Shown here piece by piece: positions 8,246 through 29,470 of a stretch of 43,212 bases of DNA (the first letter of the stretch is position 1; each line of letters begins with the position of its first letter). Made by a program: the position numbers and the translations under genes. Below the pieces are notes generated by a model. The model worked only from the letters and a program-made list of their open reading frames with translations. It made no database searches and was not told the DNA's origin. This DNA comes from a virus. The DNA is taken from positions 1-43,212 of IMG/VR virus record IMGVR_UViG_3300023205_000043; one strand, given 5' to 3'.

Positions 8246-8382
8246 TTAAAGAATCTATATTAAGATATATGATATTGGCCATATCGAAGCAGTTGACCAT
8301 TTGATATATTTAATTAGCGCAAGGAAAAGGCGCAAACGGTATCCAGTTCATACTGTATTAAAACATTTCTTTTATTTTTTTG

Positions 8383-8419
8383 CTCCCATCCTTATCAGCT
8401 TAGGGGTGGGAGTTTTTTT
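8383..8419 (+). terminator. Rho-independent terminator ending the late/lysis operon
   Basis: CTCCCATCC / GGGGTGGGAG stem followed by a T7 run. Confidence 0.75.
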
Positions 8420-8431
8420 GTATCTAAAATA

Positions 8432-8461
8432 GTTGCTTATATACTTCAAGAAGTATATAAT
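8432..8461 (+). promoter_or_regulatory. Promoter P1 with an embedded 22-bp perfect palindrome (operator)
   Basis: TTGCTT (8433-8438), a 17-nt spacer, then TATAAT (8456-8461). The palindrome TATATACTTC-AA-GAAGTATATA (8438-8459) fills the spacer. A near-identical copy lies at 12459-12488. Confidence 0.75.
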
Positions 8462-8485
8462 AAAAATATAGTAGAGGTGATCAGT

Positions 8486-8836
8486 ATGAAAGCATTAATA
8501 AATAAATCGCAGATAAAGCATAATACCGGTAAAGCAATTTTGGTTACTTTGCCAAATACAAATAGTAAAAAAGTATGGATACCCGAAAAATTAGTTTATC
8601 CAAACTCAGATAACTATACATGCACTGTTTATTTACCAGATTCATTCACTTTTAATGGTATATCCGGCAATGCTGGTAAGAATCGCTTTGATATTAGTGC
8701 TGATGAACTATCAGATTACTTTGAACCTATGAGCAATTCAATAGTTAAAAGAAAGTACAAGCCATCATTTATTGAACATGTTCCAGACAAGTTAAAGGCG
8801 GTGGATAGTAACGTTGATGACAGTCTTAAACGATAG
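8486..8836 (+). CDS. Hypothetical protein, first gene of the SNF2/PP-loop/ParB operon
   Basis: ATG at 8486 with AGAGG 8 nt upstream (the track start at 8477 is GTG). No recognisable motif. Its 3' end overlaps the SNF2 gene. Confidence 0.7.
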   Translation: MKALINKSQIKHNTGKAILVTLPNTNSKKVWIPEKLVYPNSDNYTCTVYLPDSFTFNGISGNAGKNRFDISADELSDYFEPMSNSIVKRKYKPSFIEHVPDKLKAVDSNVDDSLKR

Positions 8837-10004
8837 CCAAAATAAGGCCATTTCTAAACTACAACAGATTAAGGTTGGTGCCCTATTCATGGAGCCAGGA
8901 ACAGGAAAGACACTAACGGCTATCAAATTAATTGAATCAACACAATGTGATTATGTGTTATTCCTTGTTCCGTTCCAGACAAAAATTAATTTGCAAAAAG
9001 AATTTAATAAATGGAAGTTTGAAATGAATTATGAAATTCAAGGAATAGAAAGCTTATCCAGCTCAGACAGATTATATATGAACCTAACTAATAAAATACA
9101 AAAACATAAATCAGTATTCTTAATTGTTGATGAGTCATTAAAGATAAAAAATAGCAGTGCAATTAGAACTAAACGTATATTAAATTTAAGCCGGAACTGT
9201 GAGTTTAAATTAATCTTGAATGGAACCCCACTATCTAAAAATATGGTCGACTTGTGGCCACAAATGGAATTTCTTTCTCCTAAAATATTAAACATGTCAG
9301 AGGTCCAATTTAAGAATACATTTTGCCATTACATCAAATATCGTGAAACTAATCAATATGGTAAAAAAGGCAAATGGCAAGAATTCATAAAAGGATATGA
9401 TAACGTTGATTACCTGTATTCTCTTATTGATCCGTATGTATTTGATGCTGACTTAAAGATTAATAAGACCAAACAATATTCAACTATATTTTATGATATT
9501 AACGCTAACATTGACCGATATAACGAGTTAAAGCAGAGCTTTATTAATAGCTTCAGTGATGACCCAGATAGTTTCTTAAAGTACACTACATTAATGCAAC
9601 AGGCCTATTGTGATGAACCATCTAAACTAGAGGCTATTAAATCATTAGTTGATGATAAGACTTTAATATTTGTTAAATTCCTACGTTCTAAAGATGCTAT
9701 TTACAGTGTTTATCATAATGCCAAAGTATTCACCTATGGTAAAGGCTCGTTAGGACTTAATTTACAGCAATACAATAAGATAATATTTTTTGATAAAACA
9801 TTTGATTATGCTCAAAGAGACCAGGCTGAACATAGGATATTTAGAATTGGCCAAGATGATAATGTTAATTATTATTCACTAACAGGCAACGTTAATTTAG
9901 AATCAACGATTGATAGGAACATTAAAAAGAAGACTAATTTACTAACCCATTTCAAAGAGTTAACTAAGACAGGAGTTGATATAGATTGGGAAAACATTAT
10001 TTAA
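8814..10004 (+). CDS. Minimal SNF2-family ATPase/helicase
   Basis: Motif I GTGKT, motif II DESLKIKN, motif III LNGTPLSKNMVDLWPQMEFL, motif V GSLGLNLQ, motif VI QAEHRIFRIGQ. Confidence 0.85.
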   Translation: MMTVLNDSQNKAISKLQQIKVGALFMEPGTGKTLTAIKLIESTQCDYVLFLVPFQTKINLQKEFNKWKFEMNYEIQGIESLSSSDRLYMNLTNKIQKHKSVFLIVDESLKIKNSSAIRTKRILNLSRNCEFKLILNGTPLSKNMVDLWPQMEFLSPKILNMSEVQFKNTFCHYIKYRETNQYGKKGKWQEFIKGYDNVDYLYSLIDPYVFDADLKINKTKQYSTIFYDINANIDRYNELKQSFINSFSDDPDSFLKYTTLMQQAYCDEPSKLEAIKSLVDDKTLIFVKFLRSKDAIYSVYHNAKVFTYGKGSLGLNLQQYNKIIFFDKTFDYAQRDQAEHRIFRIGQDDNVNYYSLTGNVNLESTIDRNIKKKTNLLTHFKELTKTGVDIDWENII

Positions 10005-11281
10005 ATATAAATGTATATGATGCTACAGAAAAACGGCTAGAATATCTATTCAACGAGTTTGAGCATATCCACGTTGCTTTCTCAGGTGGTAAGGATAGTG
10101 GAATACTACTTAATTTAGCTTATGATTATGCGGAAAAACACAATCAGCTTGATAAGCTATCAATGCACTTTGTAGATTACGAGGCACAATATCAAGCTAC
10201 TATTGATTATGTTGATAGTGTGTTTAAATCATTGGACATTGAAAAATACTGGCTCTGCATGCCTAATTCAGTTCCTACGGCTACATCTATGCGTGAATCT
10301 TTTTGGATTCCTTGGGATAAATCAAAGCAAGATATTTGGGTACGTGATATGCCTAAATATGACTATGTGGTTAATGTTGACAATGCACCATTTGATTATG
10401 AATTTGGTACAAATGATTATGAGTTCCAAGATGATTTTAACGAGTGGGTAGCAGACAAGAATGATGGTAAGACAGCTATACTAATTGGTATTCGTGCTGA
10501 TGAATCGCTAGACAGATACCGAGCCATTGCTTCCAATAATAAAATTAACAGCTACCAGGATAAAAATTACGTTACTAAGAAGAATGATTTTTATATGGCA
10601 TATCCTATCTATGATTGGACCGTTGACGATATTTGGACTGCTAATGCTAAATTAGGATTTGAGTACAATTCTATATACGACCTATACTTTTATGCCGGCA
10701 TTCCAATTAATAAAATGCGTGTCGCTAGTCCTTTCTTATCGCAAGGAATGGACACATTAAAGTACTACCAGGTGATTGAACCGAATACCTGGGCCAAGAT
10801 GTTAGGACGTGTCAATGGTGTTAATTTTGCATCAATCTATGGATCAACAACTGCCATGGGTTGGAATAAGATTAAGCTGCCAAAAGGAATGACTTGGAAG
10901 TCTTATGTAAAGTTCCTTTTAAAGACTTTGCCAGAACAAACTAGAAAAGATTACGAAAAGATATTCGCTACTTCTTTTGAGTTTTGGGCAAAGCGTGGCG
11001 GAGTTCTATCAAAAGAAACTATCCAGGAATTAAATGATGCTGGTATTCCATTTGAGGTAAAGGGACAAACTAATTACAAGACTGATAAGAGTGCCGTCAC
11101 ATTTGAAGACTACCCGGATGATGCACCAGTTAGGGAATTTAAGACAGTTCCATCATATAAACGTATGGCTATCACAATTATGAAAAACGACCACACAGCA
11201 AAATATATGGGGTTCAGCCGTACAAAAGAACAACAAGAAAGAAGGAAGAAAGCAATTGCCAAATACAAAGAAATTTTCTAA
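9986..11281 (+). CDS. PAPS-reductase-family PP-loop ATP pyrophosphatase, IbrA-like
   Basis: PP-loop HVAFSGGKDSGILLNL and IGIRADESLDRYRA. A long C-terminal extension as seen in IbrA-type proteins. TTG start overlapping the SNF2 stop. Confidence 0.8.
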   Translation: MGKHYLNINVYDATEKRLEYLFNEFEHIHVAFSGGKDSGILLNLAYDYAEKHNQLDKLSMHFVDYEAQYQATIDYVDSVFKSLDIEKYWLCMPNSVPTATSMRESFWIPWDKSKQDIWVRDMPKYDYVVNVDNAPFDYEFGTNDYEFQDDFNEWVADKNDGKTAILIGIRADESLDRYRAIASNNKINSYQDKNYVTKKNDFYMAYPIYDWTVDDIWTANAKLGFEYNSIYDLYFYAGIPINKMRVASPFLSQGMDTLKYYQVIEPNTWAKMLGRVNGVNFASIYGSTTAMGWNKIKLPKGMTWKSYVKFLLKTLPEQTRKDYEKIFATSFEFWAKRGGVLSKETIQELNDAGIPFEVKGQTNYKTDKSAVTFEDYPDDAPVREFKTVPSYKRMAITIMKNDHTAKYMGFSRTKEQQERRKKAIAKYKEIF

Positions 11282-12275
11282 ATACATAACATATCCGCAA
11301 GTAGCAAGTAAAAGATATTTAATTGATGTCGACGGGAATATTTTTGATGAAAAATTAAATAAAAATCCAAATATCAGGTCCGATAAGGACGGTTATAATA
11401 TCGTAAGTCTGTCAACTTTGAAGAAACGCTCTCAAAATTTCAAGGTACACAGACTGGTTGCATATGAATTTATAAAAAATGATGATAAAGAAAGTAAAAC
11501 ACAAGTAAATCATAAAGATGAGAATAAGCAAAATAACAATGTAACTAATTTAGAATGGTGTAGTCCTGCTTATAATATTAATTATGGAATGAGAACTAAG
11601 AGATCGGTAGACCATAGAGCTAAGAGAATCGCTCTGAAAAATGTAAATACTGGTGAAGTGGTGACGTTTGACAGTATTTCATCAGCATGCCGACTAATGC
11701 AACTAGACATGAGACATTTAGGAGAAACATTAAATGGAAAAAGAAAGACAATTAATGGATATAAGGCTTGGTATCTAGAAAGTCCAGCTTACAACGTAAT
11801 AACTGTTCCTATTGAAAAAATTCAGGCTAATACTTATAACCCTAACCACGTTGCACCGCCAGAAATGAAACTATTATATGAATCCATTAAAGATGACAAT
11901 TATACTATGCCGATTGTCTGCTACTACTTAAAAGACACAGATAAATATGAGATTGTTGACGGCTATCACAGGTATACAGTAATGCTTAATCATAAGGATA
12001 TTTATGATCGTGAACATGGGTGTTTGCCAGTTAGTGTAATAGATAAGCCTATTGAAGACAGAATAGCATCTACTATCCGCCATAACCGTGCAAGGGGAAC
12101 TCATGATGTTGACCTAATGAAGAACATCGTTAAGGAATTAACCGAGTCAGGAATGTCGGATAATTGGATAATGAAAAACATCGGTATGGATGCTGACGAG
12201 TTATTAAGATTGAAACAAATCAATGGATTGGCGTCATTGTTTAAAGATAAAAACTTTGGAAATAGTTGGGAGTAA
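11256..12275 (+). CDS. Fusion protein: HNH homing-endonuclease module (NUMOD4/HNH_3-like plus DNA-binding tail) joined in frame to a ParB/Srx-fold IbrB-like domain
   Basis: N-terminal half: YLIDVDGNIFDE, KVHRLVAYEF, VNHKDENKQNNNVTNLEW and INGYKAWY, which parallels the stand-alone HNH at 19808. C-terminal half: IVDGYHRYTV and STIRHNRARGTH. There is no stop and no plausible start between the two halves. Confidence 0.75.
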   Translation: MPNTKKFSKYITYPQVASKRYLIDVDGNIFDEKLNKNPNIRSDKDGYNIVSLSTLKKRSQNFKVHRLVAYEFIKNDDKESKTQVNHKDENKQNNNVTNLEWCSPAYNINYGMRTKRSVDHRAKRIALKNVNTGEVVTFDSISSACRLMQLDMRHLGETLNGKRKTINGYKAWYLESPAYNVITVPIEKIQANTYNPNHVAPPEMKLLYESIKDDNYTMPIVCYYLKDTDKYEIVDGYHRYTVMLNHKDIYDREHGCLPVSVIDKPIEDRIASTIRHNRARGTHDVDLMKNIVKELTESGMSDNWIMKNIGMDADELLRLKQINGLASLFKDKNFGNSWE

Positions 12276-12280
12276 TTAAA

Positions 12281-12457
12281 ATGGTATTAGAATCACAAAT
12301 TAGAGCTAACAAAAAATGGGATAGTAAAAATAGAGACCAGGTAAACTATTTAAAAGCACGATCTGCTGCAAAGAATTTCATTAAAAAGCGTGCCACAATT
12401 GATGATATAGCAGAGCTGAAGGAGCTTTTAAAAGAAAAAGAAAATAGTTTAAAATAA
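12281..12457 (+). CDS. Small basic protein (58 aa), last gene of the P1 operon
   Basis: ATG at 12281 with GGGAG 8 nt upstream (the track start at 12266 is TTG). Lys/Arg-rich and helical in character. Confidence 0.6.
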   Translation: MVLESQIRANKKWDSKNRDQVNYLKARSAAKNFIKKRATIDDIAELKELLKEKENSLK

Positions 12458-12458
12458 G

Positions 12459-12488
12459 GTTGCTTATATACTTCTTGAAGTATATAAT
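12459..12488 (+). promoter_or_regulatory. Promoter P2, second copy of the palindrome-bearing promoter
   Basis: TTGCTT (12460-12465), a 17-nt spacer, then TATAAT (12483-12488). Palindrome TATATACTTC-TT-GAAGTATATA (12465-12486). Confidence 0.75.
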
Positions 12489-12527: not shown

Positions 12528-12911
12528 ATGGACACAACTCAAAGAGAACTAGAAATTGAAGACTTAGCTAAATTAATGGCAAGTAATAAGCCTAATCAAG
12601 AAAAACATCCAGACTTTGTAATGAGTGACTGGATCAATACAGCTACTGAAATTTGGGAAAACAGACATGCTATCACAGTAAAAGCCAGAGTAAGTAACAA
12701 CGTTATTGGTGGACAAGGTGCTGAATCATTTTGGATTGAACTAAAAGGACAAGATAGAATTGATTATCAATCCAGCAAGGAATGTATCCTAACTGGAACT
12801 GTAGAAAATGAATTAGAAGTCATTGGTTATGGTACGACTGCAAAATTCAGTTTTGACGGTGTTAAAGTTCCAGAACTAACAGAAATTGTTAGGGGGTCTA
12901 TCATTGACTGA
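12528..12911 (+). CDS. Hypothetical protein (127 aa), P2 operon
   Basis: AAAAGGCGGA upstream of the ATG. No recognisable motif. Confidence 0.7.
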   Translation: MDTTQRELEIEDLAKLMASNKPNQEKHPDFVMSDWINTATEIWENRHAITVKARVSNNVIGGQGAESFWIELKGQDRIDYQSSKECILTGTVENELEVIGYGTTAKFSFDGVKVPELTEIVRGSIID

Positions 12912-13179
12912 TGATAAAGTACTACAAGCATATGATTGGTTTATAAATAATGATTTCAGAGATGATTCAAAAACCGATGCCTGGGCTAGTATCGTAAATG
13001 CTAATCAAGATAAATTTGAGATTGGTAAATCAGATAATGGTTACTTCAAAGTAGTTCATTATTCTGATATTGAAATACGATACGACAAAGGTGAGACTGA
13101 ACCAAAATTAGATGGTTATACTTATATCAAAAATTTCTACTTTGGAACTGATTACTGGATATTTAAGAAAAACAATTGA
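12904..13179 (+). CDS. Hypothetical protein (about 91 aa), P2 operon
   Basis: The TTG at 12904 has GGGGG 7 nt upstream and overlaps the preceding TGA. The track start at 12886 is also TTG. Confidence 0.6.
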   Translation: MTDDKVLQAYDWFINNDFRDDSKTDAWASIVNANQDKFEIGKSDNGYFKVVHYSDIEIRYDKGETEPKLDGYTYIKNFYFGTDYWIFKKNN

Positions 13180-13180
13180 T

Positions 13181-13209
13181 ACTCACAACTAATATTGTGG
13201 GTGTTTTTT
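13181..13209 (+). terminator. Rho-independent terminator of the P2 operon
   Basis: ACTCACAA / TTGTGGGT 8-bp stem, 6-nt loop, then a T6 run. Confidence 0.7.
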
Positions 13210-13664: not shown

Positions 13665-13778
13665 TACTCTAAGGCAGAAACAATAAAGATAAAGAATGCA
13701 ATCACATACACATAGAGACTCATGCCGCACCATTAGATCTACGTTTAGCATAGTATATTACACATTTAATCCAAAAAA

Positions 13779-13821
13779 ATATACTTAGTATATTTACTAT
13801 ATTAAGTATACTAAGTATATT
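13779..13821. repeat. AT-rich repeat cluster (TATACT-T/A-AGTATA palindromes) immediately downstream of the parA operon; candidate centromere/iteron site
   Basis: ATATACTTAGTATAT ... TTAAGTATACTAAGTATAT. Related boxes occur at 15001-15071. Confidence 0.6.
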
Positions 13822-14097
13822 TTATTTTCTGCTATCATATATATTTCTTTCAGTATCTGTCAGTGTATTTAAGTACGCGTCTACTGCCAATTCTACAACC
13901 TTATACATTGGTATGTCTTTTACATATGCTATGTTTCCAATGGTTTCCTTAACAGGTGGATCAAGCTGGACAGGGACTCTATCCTTCGCCTTAAATTTTT
14001 TATCGGTATATGATATTTCAACATCGTCATCAACCTTTATATCCTTGGCTTCAATTTGTTTTCTTTTAAGTTCCTTATTACTTGGTAATAATGCCAT
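13822..14097 (-). CDS. Small partition/centromere-binding protein candidate (RHH-like; RepC/ParG-type position)
   Basis: 91 aa, overlaps the parA stop. The C-terminal beta-strand plus two helices pattern (VQLDPPVKETIGNIAYV...VVELAVDAYLNTL) fits an RHH fold. The call is positional. Confidence 0.55.
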   Translation of the reverse strand: MALLPSNKELKRKQIEAKDIKVDDDVEISYTDKKFKAKDRVPVQLDPPVKETIGNIAYVKDIPMYKVVELAVDAYLNTLTDTERNIYDSRK

Positions 14098-14986: not shown

Positions 14987-15000
14987 AATTTTCTCCTTAA

Positions 15001-15071
15001 AATATACTTAATATATTCACTATACTAAGTATATTCACTATATTTAATATATTAAGTATACTAAATATAGT
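15001..15071. repeat. AT-rich repeat cluster upstream of parA (between parA and repA); candidate centromere/iteron and parA promoter region
   Basis: Two 18-bp-spaced copies of ATATTCACTATA (15013, 15031), plus the boxes ACTAAGTATA, TTAAGTATAC and ATATACTTAATATAT. Confidence 0.6.
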
Positions 15072-15104
15072 GCTACTTGTCAAAAATATATTTGATACAT
15101 AGTG

Positions 15105-17355: not shown

Positions 17356-17415
17356 AGTATAATAACTGTTACTTATTGATGAATTTATTACACAATAAGT
17401 AACAATTATTATACT
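17356..17415. repeat. 23-bp inverted repeat (1 mismatch) with a 14-bp spacer
   Basis: AGTATAATAACTGTTACTTATTG (17356-17378) against the reverse complement of CAATAAGTAACAATTATTATACT (17393-17415). Confidence 0.85.
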
Positions 17416-19807: not shown

Positions 19808-20389
19808 ATGGAAACTTGGAAGGCTATTCCTGGCTTTGAAAGATATCAGATATCGAGTTTGGGTAGAGTGAAGAATACCAAAATTGGCAGCATTAGAGGC
19901 CTTTCACATCCAAGCGCAAGAACTGAATATTTAAAAACTAGTTTTAGAAATGAAAATGGTGATATTAAAACATTTGATGTTCACAGACTAGTAGCTGAAG
20001 CATTTTGCCCTAAGCCCAATGAATCAAATAAATTAGAAGTTGACCATTTAAATAGAAATACTTTAGATAACAGAGCTTCAAATTTAGAGTGGGTTACTCC
20101 TGACGAGAATAGACGACGAAGTAGGACACGAACACTTGACTATTCAGTAAATGATACATCGGTTGTTTGGTATAAAGAAAATGGTGAAATATTAGGAGTG
20201 TTTGAAAATTGCTTACAAGCACACTTTCATACAGGAATGTCATTAAGCGGGATAACAAAATGCTGCTCTAAAAAATATCCTAGAGCTCATTCATTCAAAG
20301 GCAATGGATTCATGAGAGTTCCTACAATAGATGCAGAGAAATTATTAGATGAACAAATGGAGGATAGGATGAATGCACTGGAATGGTGA
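19808..20389 (+). CDS. HNH homing endonuclease (NUMOD4 plus HNH_3 type)
   Basis: WKAIPGFERYQISSLGRVKN, DVHRLVAEAF, VDHLNRNTLDNRASNLEWVT. Confidence 0.85.
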   Translation: METWKAIPGFERYQISSLGRVKNTKIGSIRGLSHPSARTEYLKTSFRNENGDIKTFDVHRLVAEAFCPKPNESNKLEVDHLNRNTLDNRASNLEWVTPDENRRRSRTRTLDYSVNDTSVVWYKENGEILGVFENCLQAHFHTGMSLSGITKCCSKKYPRAHSFKGNGFMRVPTIDAEKLLDEQMEDRMNALEW

Positions 20390-26890: not shown

Positions 26891-27160
26891 ATGACGAAGA
26901 ACACATTAAGTGACTTGAACAATCATTTATTCGAGGAAATGGAACGTCTTAATGATGACTCCTTAACTGAGGATCAACTTAATAAAGAGATTAGTCGAAG
27001 TAAGGCTATGACTAATGTCGGAGATAAGATAATTCAGAATGCAAATACGATTCTTAAAGCAAAGATTGCATATGACGATGTAGATAGTATAGATAGTAGT
27101 AAACGAGCACAAATCTTACTAGGAAATGATACAGATGAAATACACGAAGGAACAGATTGA
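26891..27160 (+). CDS. Hypothetical protein (89 aa)
   Basis: Tightly packed in the operon. No motif. Confidence 0.6.
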   Translation: MTKNTLSDLNNHLFEEMERLNDDSLTEDQLNKEISRSKAMTNVGDKIIQNANTILKAKIAYDDVDSIDSSKRAQILLGNDTDEIHEGTD

Positions 27161-27701
27161 TTTCATTTATAAAAATTACAAAGGTATTAGTAGTCGGGAA
27201 TTAACCAAGAAGTTTAATAAGAAATTCAGTACAAGTCGAGAAAGTACTTCTATAAATGCCTTTAAAGGCCACCATAAATTAAAAAGCGGCTATAACAATT
27301 ATTTCAAGCCTGGAAACCAACCATGGAATACAGGAACAAAAGGATTGGTAAAGGCTAATAGTGGTTCTAGGAAACCAGCACCAATAGGGAAAATCTATTC
27401 TAGTAGCGGTCATAATCTTATTAAAACTGTTAACGGTTGGCAACAATATTCACGTTATAAGTATGAGGAATACCATGATTGCAAATTAACTCCAAATGAA
27501 CGAATTAATTTCTTAGACAATGATAATACAAACTTTGCCAAGGAAAATCTAATCAAAGTCACAAAACAGGAAGTAGCACGAATTCATCGCGAAGGATATT
27601 TGTATGATGATCCAACCTTGAATAAAGTTGGAATAAGTATGGTCAGATTAAAAATGAAAGTTAGAGATATTTCTAATGCTAACAACAGAAAAGATAAATG
27701 A
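27135..27701 (+). CDS. HNH-type (HNH_3-like, possibly degenerate) endonuclease
   Basis: GNQPWNTGTKG and INFLDNDNTNFAKENLIKV patterns. The ATG at 27135 has AGGAA 9 nt upstream. Confidence 0.55.
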   Translation: MKYTKEQIDFIYKNYKGISSRELTKKFNKKFSTSRESTSINAFKGHHKLKSGYNNYFKPGNQPWNTGTKGLVKANSGSRKPAPIGKIYSSSGHNLIKTVNGWQQYSRYKYEEYHDCKLTPNERINFLDNDNTNFAKENLIKVTKQEVARIHREGYLYDDPTLNKVGISMVRLKMKVRDISNANNRKDK

Positions 27702-28359
27702 ATTAATTGGTGTTGATGATTCATGGAAAGCGCCAGAGAAATTATTAAAAGTATTACTGAATAAATCGCAACGCGAGGAACTATTTAATAACTTTCTTAG
27801 AAATGAAACAGATATGAGTTTCGACTGGTTCCATATGTATTTTCAAGATGAAGCGGCAGACCGTAAGAAAATGAAACAAGATTTTACACCACAATCTGTT
27901 TCGATGATATTGAATAGGCTAGTTGAACCTAAGAACGATAACTATTTTGAATGTGCAGCCGGTACAGGTGGTATTGCTATTAACCATTACTACCAACAAT
28001 GCTTGAAACAATATCCATGGGACTATCAACCAGTCGAACATTATCACATGTTAGAAGAATTATCAGACAGAGCAATGCCGTTTCTGTTATTCAATTTAGC
28101 AATTCGTGGCATGAATGCTACCGTAATTCAAATTGATAGTTTATCGAGAGATAAATGTAAAGGCGTATTCTTCATTCAAAACATTAAAAATGATGCTTTA
28201 AGTTTTAGCAGTATTAACGTAATGCCATATTCGGATATGGTGAAAAATGAATTCAATATTAAGAGTTGGGATAGTCAACGATACCCTGAACATATTGAGG
28301 ATAATTTAGGAGATGTATTTGATGCAAAATCAATTAAGCGTATCAAGGAGATTCAGTAA
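27676..28359 (+). CDS. N6-adenine-methylase-like protein (HsdM-like core; no clear NPPY/F motif)
   Basis: DFTPQSVSMIL, FECAAGTGGI (motif I) and ELSDRAMPFLLFNLAIRG. No (D/N/S)PP(Y/F) found by eye. Only 227 aa. Confidence 0.5.
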   Translation: MLTTEKINELIGVDDSWKAPEKLLKVLLNKSQREELFNNFLRNETDMSFDWFHMYFQDEAADRKKMKQDFTPQSVSMILNRLVEPKNDNYFECAAGTGGIAINHYYQQCLKQYPWDYQPVEHYHMLEELSDRAMPFLLFNLAIRGMNATVIQIDSLSRDKCKGVFFIQNIKNDALSFSSINVMPYSDMVKNEFNIKSWDSQRYPEHIEDNLGDVFDAKSIKRIKEIQ

Positions 28360-29470
28360 TAATGTGGAAATGTTTTATAGAGGAACCGATGGAAAAACTA
28401 GAAAAATCAGTAGAAAGGGGCTAATTGAAAAAGTTAGAAATATGACTTTTTATGATTACTATAAATGGTTTATTGCCAACGAAAAGGAGGGCAAAATTCG
28501 AGGAGTTACCTTAGACAAGTATCTTATGACTCTGAAGTGGATTAATGAAATAGCTCCGGATATGTTGCTGATTGATCTGGAAAGTAACAGACAAAACCTA
28601 CAGTTTCTATTAGATGAATATGGTAAAACACATCAAAGAGCTACAACGATGGATTTTAGAACTCAACTTGGAGCCGGATTAGGATTTGCTGTTGATGACG
28701 GTTATATCCATAGTTATGCAAAGACCGGAATTACAATTCATTCAATTGAAGATACATGGACTCCAGAACAGATAGCAGCACAGAAACAGCAAATCAAATC
28801 TTTCAGTGCCACACAGTTTAATAAGTTTAAATCGTATGTTGATTTTAAGCTGGACGCTATGTTAGACCAAGAGCCTATTTATCACGGTGAAGATTATACA
28901 AGATCAGAAAAAGGAATGAATACAAGTACTAGTTATCAACTATATTACATGCTATTTGCTGTTTTGATTCACACAGGAGTTAGATACGGAGAGGCGATGG
29001 GCTTTGAATATTCCGATATAACCCCTGGCGATATTAACATAAGTAAAACTTGGAAATATAGAAGTACAGTGGGCTGCTTTCAACCAACAAAGAATAGAAG
29101 CTCAATAAGACTAGTAACAATTGATAATACACTTTATGAACTATTAAAAAAATATTATCAATTTAAAGAAAAATATGGAATTCCAAACGATCCGGATAGA
29201 CCACTATTAAATGAAAACGTAAGAATTTTTAACAGTACGGTTAACAATTTATTAGCAAGCGTCGAGAAACATTTGGGACTCCCAAGACTAACTGCACATA
29301 AGTTAAGACATAGTTACGCCTCATATCTTTTATATCAAGATATTCCGGCTCAAATTGTTGCAAAACAGCTAGGACATACAGATACAAGTATGCTTTTTAA
29401 AGTTTATGCCCATATTCTTGAAGAAAAGAAGCGTGCGTCAGATGAAAAGATTAAAGGGTTATTAGCATAA
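28322..29470 (+). CDS. Tyrosine recombinase (phage integrase family)
   Basis: C-terminal catalytic pattern TGVRYGEA ... HKLRHSYASYLL ... LGHTDTSMLFKVYAHI. The ATG at 28322 has AGGAG 9 nt upstream. Confidence 0.85.
   Translation: MQNQLSVSRRFSNNVEMFYRGTDGKTRKISRKGLIEKVRNMTFYDYYKWFIANEKEGKIRGVTLDKYLMTLKWINEIAPDMLLIDLESNRQNLQFLLDEYGKTHQRATTMDFRTQLGAGLGFAVDDGYIHSYAKTGITIHSIEDTWTPEQIAAQKQQIKSFSATQFNKFKSYVDFKLDAMLDQEPIYHGEDYTRSEKGMNTSTSYQLYYMLFAVLIHTGVRYGEAMGFEYSDITPGDINISKTWKYRSTVGCFQPTKNRSSIRLVTIDNTLYELLKKYYQFKEKYGIPNDPDRPLLNENVRIFNSTVNNLLASVEKHLGLPRLTAHKLRHSYASYLLYQDIPAQIVAKQLGHTDTSMLFKVYAHILEEKKRASDEKIKGLLA

Follow-up and report, generated by a model that had tools for sequence, protein, structure and literature searches.

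A phage operon joining a SNF2 ATPase to IbrA and IbrB as a possible DNA-directed, ATP-dependent complex

The IbrA and IbrB proteins of Escherichia coli, encoded by ibrAB in strain ECOR-9 and represented in K-12 by the paralogs YbdN and YbdM (COG3969), pair a protein built of a PAPS_reduct domain and DUF3440 with a short ParB_N protein, the two being specified by overlapping genes. The 2002 work of Sandt et al. reportedly describes activation by ibrAB of eib (immunoglobulin-binding) prophage gene expression in ECOR-9, and the family has this genetic phenotype and no biochemistry to its name. Similar pairings of a PP-loop enzyme of the phosphoadenosine phosphosulfate (PAPS) reductase clade with a member of the ParB superfamily that bears a DGxHR-type motif, the target again presumed to be DNA, occur in Dnd systems (DndC with DndB; also SspD and BrxP), and in Dpd systems (DpdA and DpdB, with DpdE and DpdJ) a DNA-modifying enzyme relies on a ParB-like nucleoside triphosphatase (NTPase) in clusters that also hold SNF2-type helicases. 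DndB pairs with DndC (PMC10853773) and DpdB is required for DpdA-mediated insertion of preQ0 (PMC12839542), which sets a precedent for a DNA-modifying enzyme enabled by a ParB-like NTPase. Here we describe a five-gene operon with the IbrA/IbrB architecture at positions 8432–12457 of IMG/VR virus record IMGVR_UViG_3300023205_000043, a stretch of 43,212 nucleotides (nt) that we call, in its whole length, the window. Compared with the E. coli pair, the phage module adds a minimal SNF2-family ATPase and a small protein, g1, and the copy in the window also fuses an HNH/NUMOD module to IbrB. Tentatively, we read the operon as encoding a DNA-directed, ATP-dependent complex that serves the phage, most likely through covalent, non-sulfur modification of phage or episome DNA or through another form of shielding from host nucleases. 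The domain identities, the intact catalytic motifs, the linkage of the genes across phyla, the lack of conserved cysteines in IbrA and the association with an anti-CRISPR gene and lytic phages are observations; from these we infer that DNA is the substrate, by what chemistry and in what sequence the parts act, and which role they play.

Five open reading frames (ORFs) on the plus strand make up the operon, with products of 116, 395, 431, 339 and 58 amino acids (aa): g1, the SNF2 ATPase, IbrA, the gene 4 fusion protein and g5. An independent gene caller gave the same five product sizes on an identical ENA contig, and the gene 4 protein was matched residue for residue on a JGI contig. The window sequence was independently assembled at least two times, which indicates that the operon is real and no assembly artefact. 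As read from the sequence, g1 overlaps the SNF2 gene by 20 nt, the SNF2 gene overlaps ibrA by 19 nt and ibrA overlaps gene 4 by 26 nt; g5 starts 5 nt past the gene 4 stop and is preceded by GGGAG. The overlaps and the independent gene calls uphold the translational coupling of five genes proposed in an earlier note on this DNA, and profile and structure searches bore out the domain assignments made there for the SNF2 ATPase with all its motifs, for a PP-loop enzyme with SGGKDS and a long C-terminal extension, and for an HNH::ParB/Srx-fold protein that, with the PP-loop enzyme, forms the IbrA/IbrB pair.

IbrA matches PAPS_reduct (PF01507; E = 3e-13, 50.5 bits against a cut-off of 22.5), DUF3440 (PF11922; E = 3.5e-82, 275 bits against a cut-off of 25, model positions 1–181 of 182) and phrog_2302 (E = 2e-115). 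Its PP-loop domain (residues 1–237) is acidic, and DUF3440 (residues 238–431) is helical and basic, with 34 K+R and 20 D+E. Foldseek searches with an AlphaFold2 (AF2) model (predicted local distance difference test score, pLDDT, 81) aligned the N-terminal ~230 residues only, with CysH, APS reductase, eukaryotic FMN adenylyltransferase/FAD synthase and CysD as top matches and GMP synthase, NAD synthetase, TilS and TtuA further down; the same search found no structural counterpart of DUF3440 in the PDB, and PDB sequence and profile searches with IbrA gave PP-loop-local or spurious matches. In an alignment of 32 IbrA sequences, which reaches Mycobacterium, Pseudoalteromonas, Clostridium and Fusobacterium phages, SGGKDS (residues 33–38) is invariant throughout, as is a set of acidic and basic residues; the catalytic motifs, D64/E66 and E173-S174-R177 included, are intact and, like those of the SNF2 ATPase and IbrB, held by selection. 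The single cysteine of the window protein, C91, is not invariant, and neither is any other cysteine column across the 32 sequences. A CxC-x7-C motif is present in DUF3440 of many homologs (50–75% of the 32 sequences per position), and the window clade reads A/T/A at the corresponding positions 395, 397 and 405; a metal site there, if it is one, would appear to be facultative. The IbrA-like family is large: it falls into 346 clusters when grouped at 50% identity (E ≤ 1e-30), and grouping at 90% identity (E ≤ 1e-10) gives more than 6500.

IbrB occupies residues 176–339 (164 aa) of the gene 4 protein and is 75–86% identical to stand-alone, 172-aa IbrB proteins annotated in Lactobacillus and Streptococcus phages. 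It matches phrog_2159 (E = 2.5e-77), and ParB_N is marginal on gene 4, at 25.6 bits against a cut-off of 26.3. A profile search with IbrB led to the N-domains of Noc and Spo0J, with DG[FY]HR aligned on the GERR of ParB; neither DG[YF]HR nor RHNRARG varies among IbrB proteins, those of Firmicutes and of Streptomyces alike. The AF2 model (pLDDT 79) retrieved Noc, ParB and KorB as top Foldseek matches over 140–164 columns with E values down to 3e-6 (template modelling score, TM, 0.62 for KorB), and the small-molecule kinases SerK and SbnI also appeared among the profile and Foldseek matches. We predict that IbrB is a mini-ParB with a ParB/Srx N-domain and a helix-turn-helix (HTH). The predicted fold spans the N-terminal nucleotide-binding and HTH domains of the ParB/Spo0J, Noc and KorB clamps; it differs from them in lacking the C-terminal dimerisation domain, the protein ending about 70 aa past the N-domain, and in its nucleotide-binding boxes, the box I arginine and GERR being replaced. 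When the boxes that bind cytidine triphosphate (CTP) were compared, IbrB had N-P-N at box I Q-P-R and D-G-[YF]-H-R at box II G-E-R-R. We know of no parS-like site for IbrB. Independent synthesis of IbrB from within gene 4 was ruled out, as no in-frame start with a ribosome-binding site (RBS) was found near the HNH/IbrB junction. A role as plasmid partition ParB was likewise rejected: ParA has its own gene next to the operon, with which a 91-aa ORF overlaps, and virulent phages have IbrB too.

The SNF2 protein matches SNF2-rel_dom of Pfam (E = 1.6e-12, 47.6 bits against a cut-off of 24.9). Helicase_C stays below its cut-off (16.7 against 23.5 bits); solved SNF2 cores nonetheless match both lobes, the best in the PDB being the Sulfolobus SNF2/Rad54 core 1z63 (E = 4e-16, in two stretches). 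Motifs I–VI are present in the translation, including GTGKT, DESL, NGTPL, GSLGLNL and QAEHRIFRIGQ. The more than 3400 homologs are about 385–405 aa long, with no extra domain among the 120 listed. The PADLOC models ZorD, DpdE and DrmD match locally, DpdE models being second best. The likeness to Dpd has its bounds: the PP-loop enzyme is not a TGT transglycosylase, the operon has no preQ0 synthesis genes, and the SNF2 proteins of Dpd belong to its restriction half. Neither g1 nor g5 matched a family in the Pfam search. Homologs of g1 with 25–45% identity lie directly upstream of or beside the SNF2 gene (loci L001–L011, L015–L018, L022 and L027); among the phages of Firmicutes and Fusobacterium, g1 forms a fourth, conserved part of the module. 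The basic g5 (15 K+R, 9 D+E) resembles just one counterpart, the small ORF that follows IbrB in Streptococcus phage Pika (46%), and small ORFs at its position in other phages are unrelated to it.

Ahead of IbrB, residues ~20–172 of the gene 4 product can be aligned to I-HmuI, a homing endonuclease that nicks DNA (PDB 1u3e, E = 6e-11), and the protein matches HNH_3 (26.2 bits, cut-off 24.8) and an I-HmuI NUMOD-like model (27.5 bits, cut-off 27). Alignment with stand-alone IbrB places the HNH/NUMOD insertion in frame after about codon 6 of ibrB. H65, N85-H86, N94 and N98 are invariant in all 20 fusion proteins compared, whose HNH parts are 32–66% identical to that of the window. Four states are found at the ibrA/ibrB junction of relatives: empty; HNH with NUMOD, in dozens of protein clusters of 328–353 aa; NUMOD alone, in a decayed form of 216–229 aa; and a GNAT acetyltransferase, in proteins of ~303–312 aa. 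The earlier note listed the HNH::ParB protein among the operon's products; as a fusion it is no core trait of the module, the HNH part being present, decayed or absent in relatives and an optional add-on. A highly conserved site that is invaded, after which the insert decays and disappears, fits homing endonuclease behaviour, and the N-terminal 175 aa share with I-HmuI-type enzymes both their alignment and a patchy distribution with decayed, NUMOD-only forms. In contrast to such enzymes, the HNH module of the window is made in no other form than joined in frame to a host protein that is conserved; this obligatory fusion and the long-retained active site also fit co-option, and the module may have been taken over as a nicking or DNA-binding arm. 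It is not a recent copy of the free-standing HNH genes of this genome, with 40% identity over 48 aa to one and no match to the other. The GNAT::IbrB form (P0205, P0211, P0219 and P0228; L024 6001–6915) has its GNAT domain at the HNH/NUMOD position within a SNF2-IbrA-IbrB prophage module, a fusion that hints that acyl transfer may belong to the chemistry of the system in some lineages.

A tblastn search with IbrA returned 226 phage records. Records with IbrA and with the SNF2 ATPase (tblastn, phage records) numbered 90 and 90 in Flavobacterium, 21 and 18 in Streptococcus and 3 and 3 in Lactobacillus, and deposited phage genomes label the orthologs IbrA/IbrB. The three core genes stand side by side in 16 of the 18 loci fetched through IbrA, and the linkage of the triad holds although its order varies. 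SNF2-IbrA-IbrB is the order in Lactobacillus, Streptococcus, Clostridium and Streptomyces, SNF2-IbrB-IbrA that of Flavobacterium phage FCL-2 and IbrA-IbrB-g1-SNF2 that of Fusobacterium phage phiFN37; at one locus (L008) the SNF2 gene is downstream. The closest arrangements, with a g1-like gene, a ~390-aa helicase, IbrA, IbrB and a small ORF directly after the lysis genes, are those of the Lactobacillus helveticus phages CR28 and AQ113, of Streptococcus equinus phages and of virulent Streptococcus thermophilus Moineauvirus phages. The triad is also carried by Listeria phages, by a Clostridium scindens phage and by a prophage with an integrase of the Arm-DNA-bind_5/Phage_int_SAM_5 type. Identity among related loci rises along the operon, from 28–41% for g1 through 32–55% for the SNF2 ATPase and 36–70% for IbrA to 53–87% for IbrB. 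As the pair also occurs without this SNF2 ATPase, IbrA-IbrB is the core, the SNF2 ATPase a frequent third component, g1 an accessory of Firmicute and Fusobacterium phages and g5 variable; g5 and the two genes that follow it, g6 and g7, were rejected as system components, as they are not conserved beside the module and look like variable cargo.

Two decayed forms of the module were seen in the proteins P0184 and P0200 (L027 1504–2481), an IbrA stub of ~35 aa fused to IbrB, and a SNF2 remnant fused to IbrB with IbrA deleted; judged by them, IbrB is the part that survives decay. On the chromosome of Streptomyces californicus (L026 4252–8122), genes for a 435-aa SNF2 protein, IbrA and a tandem IbrB-IbrB protein (373 aa) lie beside a type I-E cse1 gene. 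A 493-aa protein encoded upstream of them has its N-terminus in common (E = 6e-12) with a 389-aa protein upstream of the helicase of Clostridium scindens phage phiCs5676-1, and its C-terminal repeats are weakly g1-like.

The genomic context of the module bears on whom it serves. In the virulent S. thermophilus phages D4276 (L029 2478–3271) and CHPC877 (L003 2981–3789), acrIIA5 lies directly upstream of the g1 homolog with a 1-nt overlap. AcrIIA5 is a validated anti-CRISPR protein (PMC6060171), and by this gene order the module of D4276 and CHPC877 sits in an anti-defence locus. For FCL-2, no lysogeny was detected (PMC4541368). The anti-CRISPR co-operon, the virulent or lytic carriers and, in mycobacteriophage Gaia, the place of the IbrA/IbrB pair among replication genes suggest a phage-serving role such as counter-defence or DNA modification rather than host defence. 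As further observations of position, FCL-2 has the module (L028 3424–7454) between the genes for the terminase large subunit and the portal, and Pseudoalteromonas phage XCL1123 has IbrA/IbrB (L021 3977–6238) just upstream of the portal gene; a place in or next to the packaging module might reflect expression late in infection or an activity on DNA at about the time it is packaged.

In the mechanism that we propose, IbrB, a mini-ParB with a predicted nucleoside triphosphate (NTP)-binding N-domain and an HTH, would bind DNA as a nucleotide-gated loader or clamp, extended in this phage by the HNH/NUMOD module for additional DNA binding and probably nicking. IbrB would recruit IbrA, whose PP-loop would use ATP to adenylate an oxygen of DNA, be it in the carbonyl of a base or in a phosphate of the backbone or a terminus, and a nucleophile other than an enzyme-bound persulfide would displace the activated group. 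The basic DUF3440 would hold the DNA, the SNF2 ATPase would translocate the complex along the duplex to reach many sites, and g1 may be a lineage-specific adaptor or regulator. CysD and FMN adenylyltransferase, among the nearest folds of IbrA, transfer AMP to a phosphate or sulfate oxygen, and other PP-loop enzymes adenylate base carbonyls of tRNA; we propose an adenylation step because the nearest folds of IbrA and the PP-loop enzymes of nucleic acids use that chemistry. The fusion partners of IbrB (HNH with NUMOD, NUMOD, GNAT) are mostly DNA-binding or DNA-cutting modules, which fits a DNA-modifying complex, and we count the continued linkage of three DNA-oriented parts through changes of gene order in favour of a machine directed at DNA. 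Such a machine was also the inference of the earlier note, and it remains the best reading; its sulfur-transfer flavour, after Dnd, Ssp and BrxP, is disfavoured by the missing conserved cysteines.

Several points weigh against this reading. The anti-CRISPR neighbourhood is limited to one phage lineage. IbrA and IbrB occur with no SNF2 ATPase of this type in Mycobacterium (Gaia), Arthrobacter and Pseudoalteromonas (XCL1123) phages, and the ybdNM pair of E. coli has no SNF2 partner (PMC9068703); the motor is therefore dispensable. The literature searched holds no demonstrated DNA modification, nor any experiment, on a phage that carries the module, and the one phenotype tied to the family name is the reported activation of eib genes. 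The altered box I arginine and GERR suggest that NTP binding by IbrB is not assured. An ordinary DNA methyltransferase is encoded in the window (27676–28359), and a second protective modification is not obviously needed. The operon also has a classical moron position, where host-defence cargo is common. The bolder proposal, that g1-SNF2-IbrA-IbrB forms an unrecognised class of DNA modification in which a cysteine-free adenylating PP-loop enzyme would attach a non-sulfur group in a clamp-loaded, motor-driven and processive manner, we hold to be rather doubtful. If true, it would mean an anti-restriction or anti-defence coat in thousands of phages and prophages from at least five bacterial phyla, and would turn the labels 'PAPS reductase AMG' (auxiliary metabolic gene) and 'co-activator of prophage gene expression' into misannotations.

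Other explanations divide by what the PP-loop enzyme would do. A phosphorothioation system like Dnd, Ssp or BREX type 4, with IbrA in the place of DndC, SspD or BrxP and IbrB in that of DndB, would draw on the pairing of a PP-loop enzyme with a DGxHR protein of the ParB superfamily and on local matches of IbrA to DndC and BrxP, and host IscS could in principle supply the sulfur (PMC10853773). DndC is defined by a three-cysteine 4Fe-4S centre and a distinct cysteine dyad (PMC10853773); IbrA has the PP-loop motif and neither the centre nor the dyad, its one cysteine (C91) is not invariant and nor is any other cysteine column, and the missing cysteines largely refute this explanation, which we regard as very improbable. 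The DndC model TIGR03183 reaches 24.3 bits where its cut-off is 290, the PADLOC DndC match covers aa 160–219 only and the BrxP match (E = 3e-5) aa 24–77 only. IbrA further differs from DndC in having DUF3440, the operon has no cysteine desulfurase, DndD or DndE gene, and a SNF2 motor replaces the SMC-like ATPase. In a scan of the 43 larger ORFs of the window, most of those above 90 aa, ORFs either had no match or matched genes for head and tail, lysis, replication, plasmid functions, a methylase or a recombinase, and genes for DndA or another desulfurase, DndD, DndE, SspA–C, PglZ, BrxC and BrxL were not found; membership of BREX type 4, whose BrxP carries DUF4007, was rejected on this and on the local nature of the BrxP match. 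Closer to untenable is the view that IbrA is a sulfate-assimilation AMG product, as its PHROG and GenBank label 'phosphoadenosine phosphosulfate reductase' and its fold similarity to CysH would have it: the conserved cysteine that CysH uses as nucleophile is absent, the SGGKDS loop is of the canonical ATP-binding kind, DUF3440 and a ParB-like partner are always present, no CysH family of NCBIfam reached threshold for IbrA and the CysD model gave a short local match far below its cut-off.

A transcriptional co-activator or anti-silencer is a fairly unlikely but more serious candidate. IbrB would load like KorB or VirB, the SNF2 ATPase would clear nucleoid proteins or recycle RNA polymerase, and IbrA would handle a nucleotide cofactor. 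The family takes its name from the reported activation of prophage eib genes by ibrAB; KorB, a transcription regulator, is among the structural matches of IbrB; SNF2 enzymes are remodellers; the palindrome in the operon promoter suggests that the operon is itself regulated; and E. coli ybdNM has a LysR repressor of its own (PMC9068703). Against this, a 431-aa PP-loop enzyme with invariant catalytic residues has no obvious place in a regulator that only binds DNA, the upstream regions of the module in 15 related loci gave no conserved site of the IbrB type, the module takes very different positions on the transcription maps of its phages, and the eib effect could stem indirectly from DNA modification. 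Similarly improbable, in our estimate, is a counter-defence without DNA modification, in which IbrA and IbrB would have tRNA, a protein or a small molecule as their target; they might, for instance, break down or sequester a nucleotide signal of immunity, lower the NTP pool or repair or change tRNA, while the SNF2 ATPase would displace host defence complexes from phage DNA. The shared operon with acrIIA5 would agree with it, as would the small-molecule kinases SerK and SbnI within the ParB/Srx fold and the bias of PP-loop enzymes, including those matched by Foldseek (GMP synthase, NAD synthetase, TilS, TtuA), towards nucleotides and tRNA; the IbrB model, however, covers the N-terminal domain and HTH of ParB, Noc and KorB beyond the Srx core, its fusion partners bind or cut DNA, and a double-stranded DNA (dsDNA) translocase is an obligatory partner in many lineages. 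We hold it decidedly unlikely that the operon is cargo for host defence or superinfection exclusion resembling DISARM, Dpd, Zorya or GmrSD, with IbrB (and HNH) as effector, IbrA marking or sensing DNA and the SNF2 ATPase scanning it. Its moron-like position with a promoter and terminator of its own, the Streptomyces copy beside the type I-E Cse1 gene and the local ZorD, DpdE and DrmD matches would suit such cargo. So would the union of a ParB/Srx-fold NTPase domain and an HNH-type nuclease in one polypeptide, which recalls GmrSD, SspE and BrxU, where a DUF262 domain precedes a DUF1524 HNH-like nuclease; the domain order is reversed here, though, GmrSD_N matches weakly (19.8 bits against a cut-off of 33.2), and ordinary IbrB normally has no nuclease partner, most versions of the module carrying no nuclease domain besides the ParB fold. 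The carriers include virulent Moineauvirus phages and FCL-2, and the operon is shared with an anti-CRISPR gene. Membership of a known defence system was rejected, since PADLOC and NCBIfam defence models gave local matches far below cut-offs and no whole-protein match.

Returning to the DNA-directed complex as the preferred reading, neither a functional study of phage IbrAB nor a description of the SNF2-IbrA-IbrB triad or its four-gene form was found in the literature searched, in keeping with the statement of the earlier note that the triad has no experimentally defined function. By protein identity (at most ~71% for IbrA), the window instance is a new member of a family named since 2002 and annotated in many phage genomes. 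IbrA-like proteins are routinely mislabelled in such genomes as sulfur-metabolism AMG products, partition proteins or virulence regulators, and the IbrAB question can now be tested in tractable pairs: S. thermophilus with D4276, L. helveticus with CR28 or AQ113 and F. columnare with FCL-2. If DNA modification or counter-defence proves true, a new chemistry of phage–host conflict would be at hand, of relevance to phage-resistant dairy starters and to phage therapy in aquaculture; if the module is only a regulator, the outcome would be a useful correction of annotation.

Table 1. The operon, its boundary elements and the domains of gene 4 (window positions)
Feature	Position	Strand	Details and evidence
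Strong intrinsic terminator closing the lysis cassette (upstream boundary)	8382..8413	+	13-bp stem, 6 GC pairs, T-run
P1, promoter-like 29-mer TTGCTT-17-TATAAT with embedded palindrome TATATACTTC-AA-GAAGTATATA (candidate operator)	8433..8461	+	
g1, 116 aa, fold unassigned	8486..8836	+	GAGGTG RBS then ATG; weak phrog_27058 match
Minimal SNF2-family ATPase, 395 aa, predicted dsDNA translocase	8817..10004	+	Pfam SNF2-rel_dom, PDB, motifs
IbrA, 431 aa: PAPS_reduct PP-loop and DUF3440	9986..11281	+	Pfam, PHROG, AF2/Foldseek
Gene 4 (whole), 339-aa HNH/NUMOD::IbrB fusion	11256..12275	+	
Gene 4, N-terminal half: I-HmuI-type HNH and NUMOD-like module	11256..11780	+	Pfam, PDB 1u3e
Gene 4, C-terminal half: IbrB mini-ParB (predicted)	11781..12275	+	phrog_2159, alignment, AF2/Foldseek
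g5, 58-aa basic protein, variable operon tail gene	12281..12457	+	phrog_2277 E 5e-22
Second copy of the P1 29-mer, directly past the g5 stop (downstream boundary)	12460..12488	+	

The single promoter P1 put forward in the earlier note stands in part (Table 1). Its -10 hexamer is perfect and a second, near-exact copy before the next genes lends it support; its -35 hexamer agrees at 3 of 6 positions, a consensus promoter scan did not list it, and its promoter function is plausible as judged from its sequence. The two copies differ at two central nucleotides only, and no such match arose in 100 shuffles. The second copy precedes two unrelated small genes, g6 and g7 (12528–12911 and 12904–13179), which end at a terminator (13178–13205) and have no homologs at any related locus. 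The common palindrome suggests a single regulator for both units. The palindrome was considered as a system-wide operator or a parS-like site for IbrB and rejected, being absent upstream of the module in the 15 related loci, which points to regulation specific to this phage and not to a feature of the module. There are exactly two copies of the 29-bp element with its 20-bp palindrome, one on either side of the five-gene operon, and recombination between the copies would cut the operon out precisely. One related locus (L009) has an analogous 29-bp repeat (at 135 and 4349) on both sides of its module.

The operon stands, as earlier claimed, in an accessory slot, between the endolysin terminator and a plasmid block of ParA, RepA and a CI/LexA-like repressor, and by this block the element looks like a phage-plasmid. 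The 91-aa ORF that overlaps the end of the ParA gene (13822–14097) has no family match, and we take it to be the small centromere-binding partner of ParA. Megablast searches of phage and plasmid collections with the operon and with both halves of the window gave no match, and by that comparison the phage itself is new at the nucleotide level; its nearest proteins are Lactobacillaceae-associated, with IbrA 64–71% identical. The first large ORF (105–1727) matches tape-measure profiles by its C-terminal part alone and late structural genes continue beyond the 3′ end of the window, which indicates that the 43.2-kb genome is complete and either circular or circularly permuted. Free-standing HNH endonuclease genes lie at 19808–20389 and 27126–27701, the DNA methyltransferase gene (phrog_1071), which overlaps the second of them, at 27676–28359, and a tyrosine recombinase gene at 28313–29470. 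Homing-type nucleases abound in this genome, and a conventional enzyme of DNA modification is already among its products. A near-perfect, non-coding 23-nt inverted repeat (96% complementary, 14-nt spacer) at 17356–17415, between the RepA-side and repressor-side genes, may be an origin or operator element. Arrays of repeats spaced by 9 bp (TATACT[TA]AG/TATATTCAC units) at 13776–13825 and 14999–15075, on both sides of the parA operon, probably serve the plasmid-like maintenance block as centromere or iteron sites, and have TATACTT/AAGTATA half-sites in common with the P1 palindrome.

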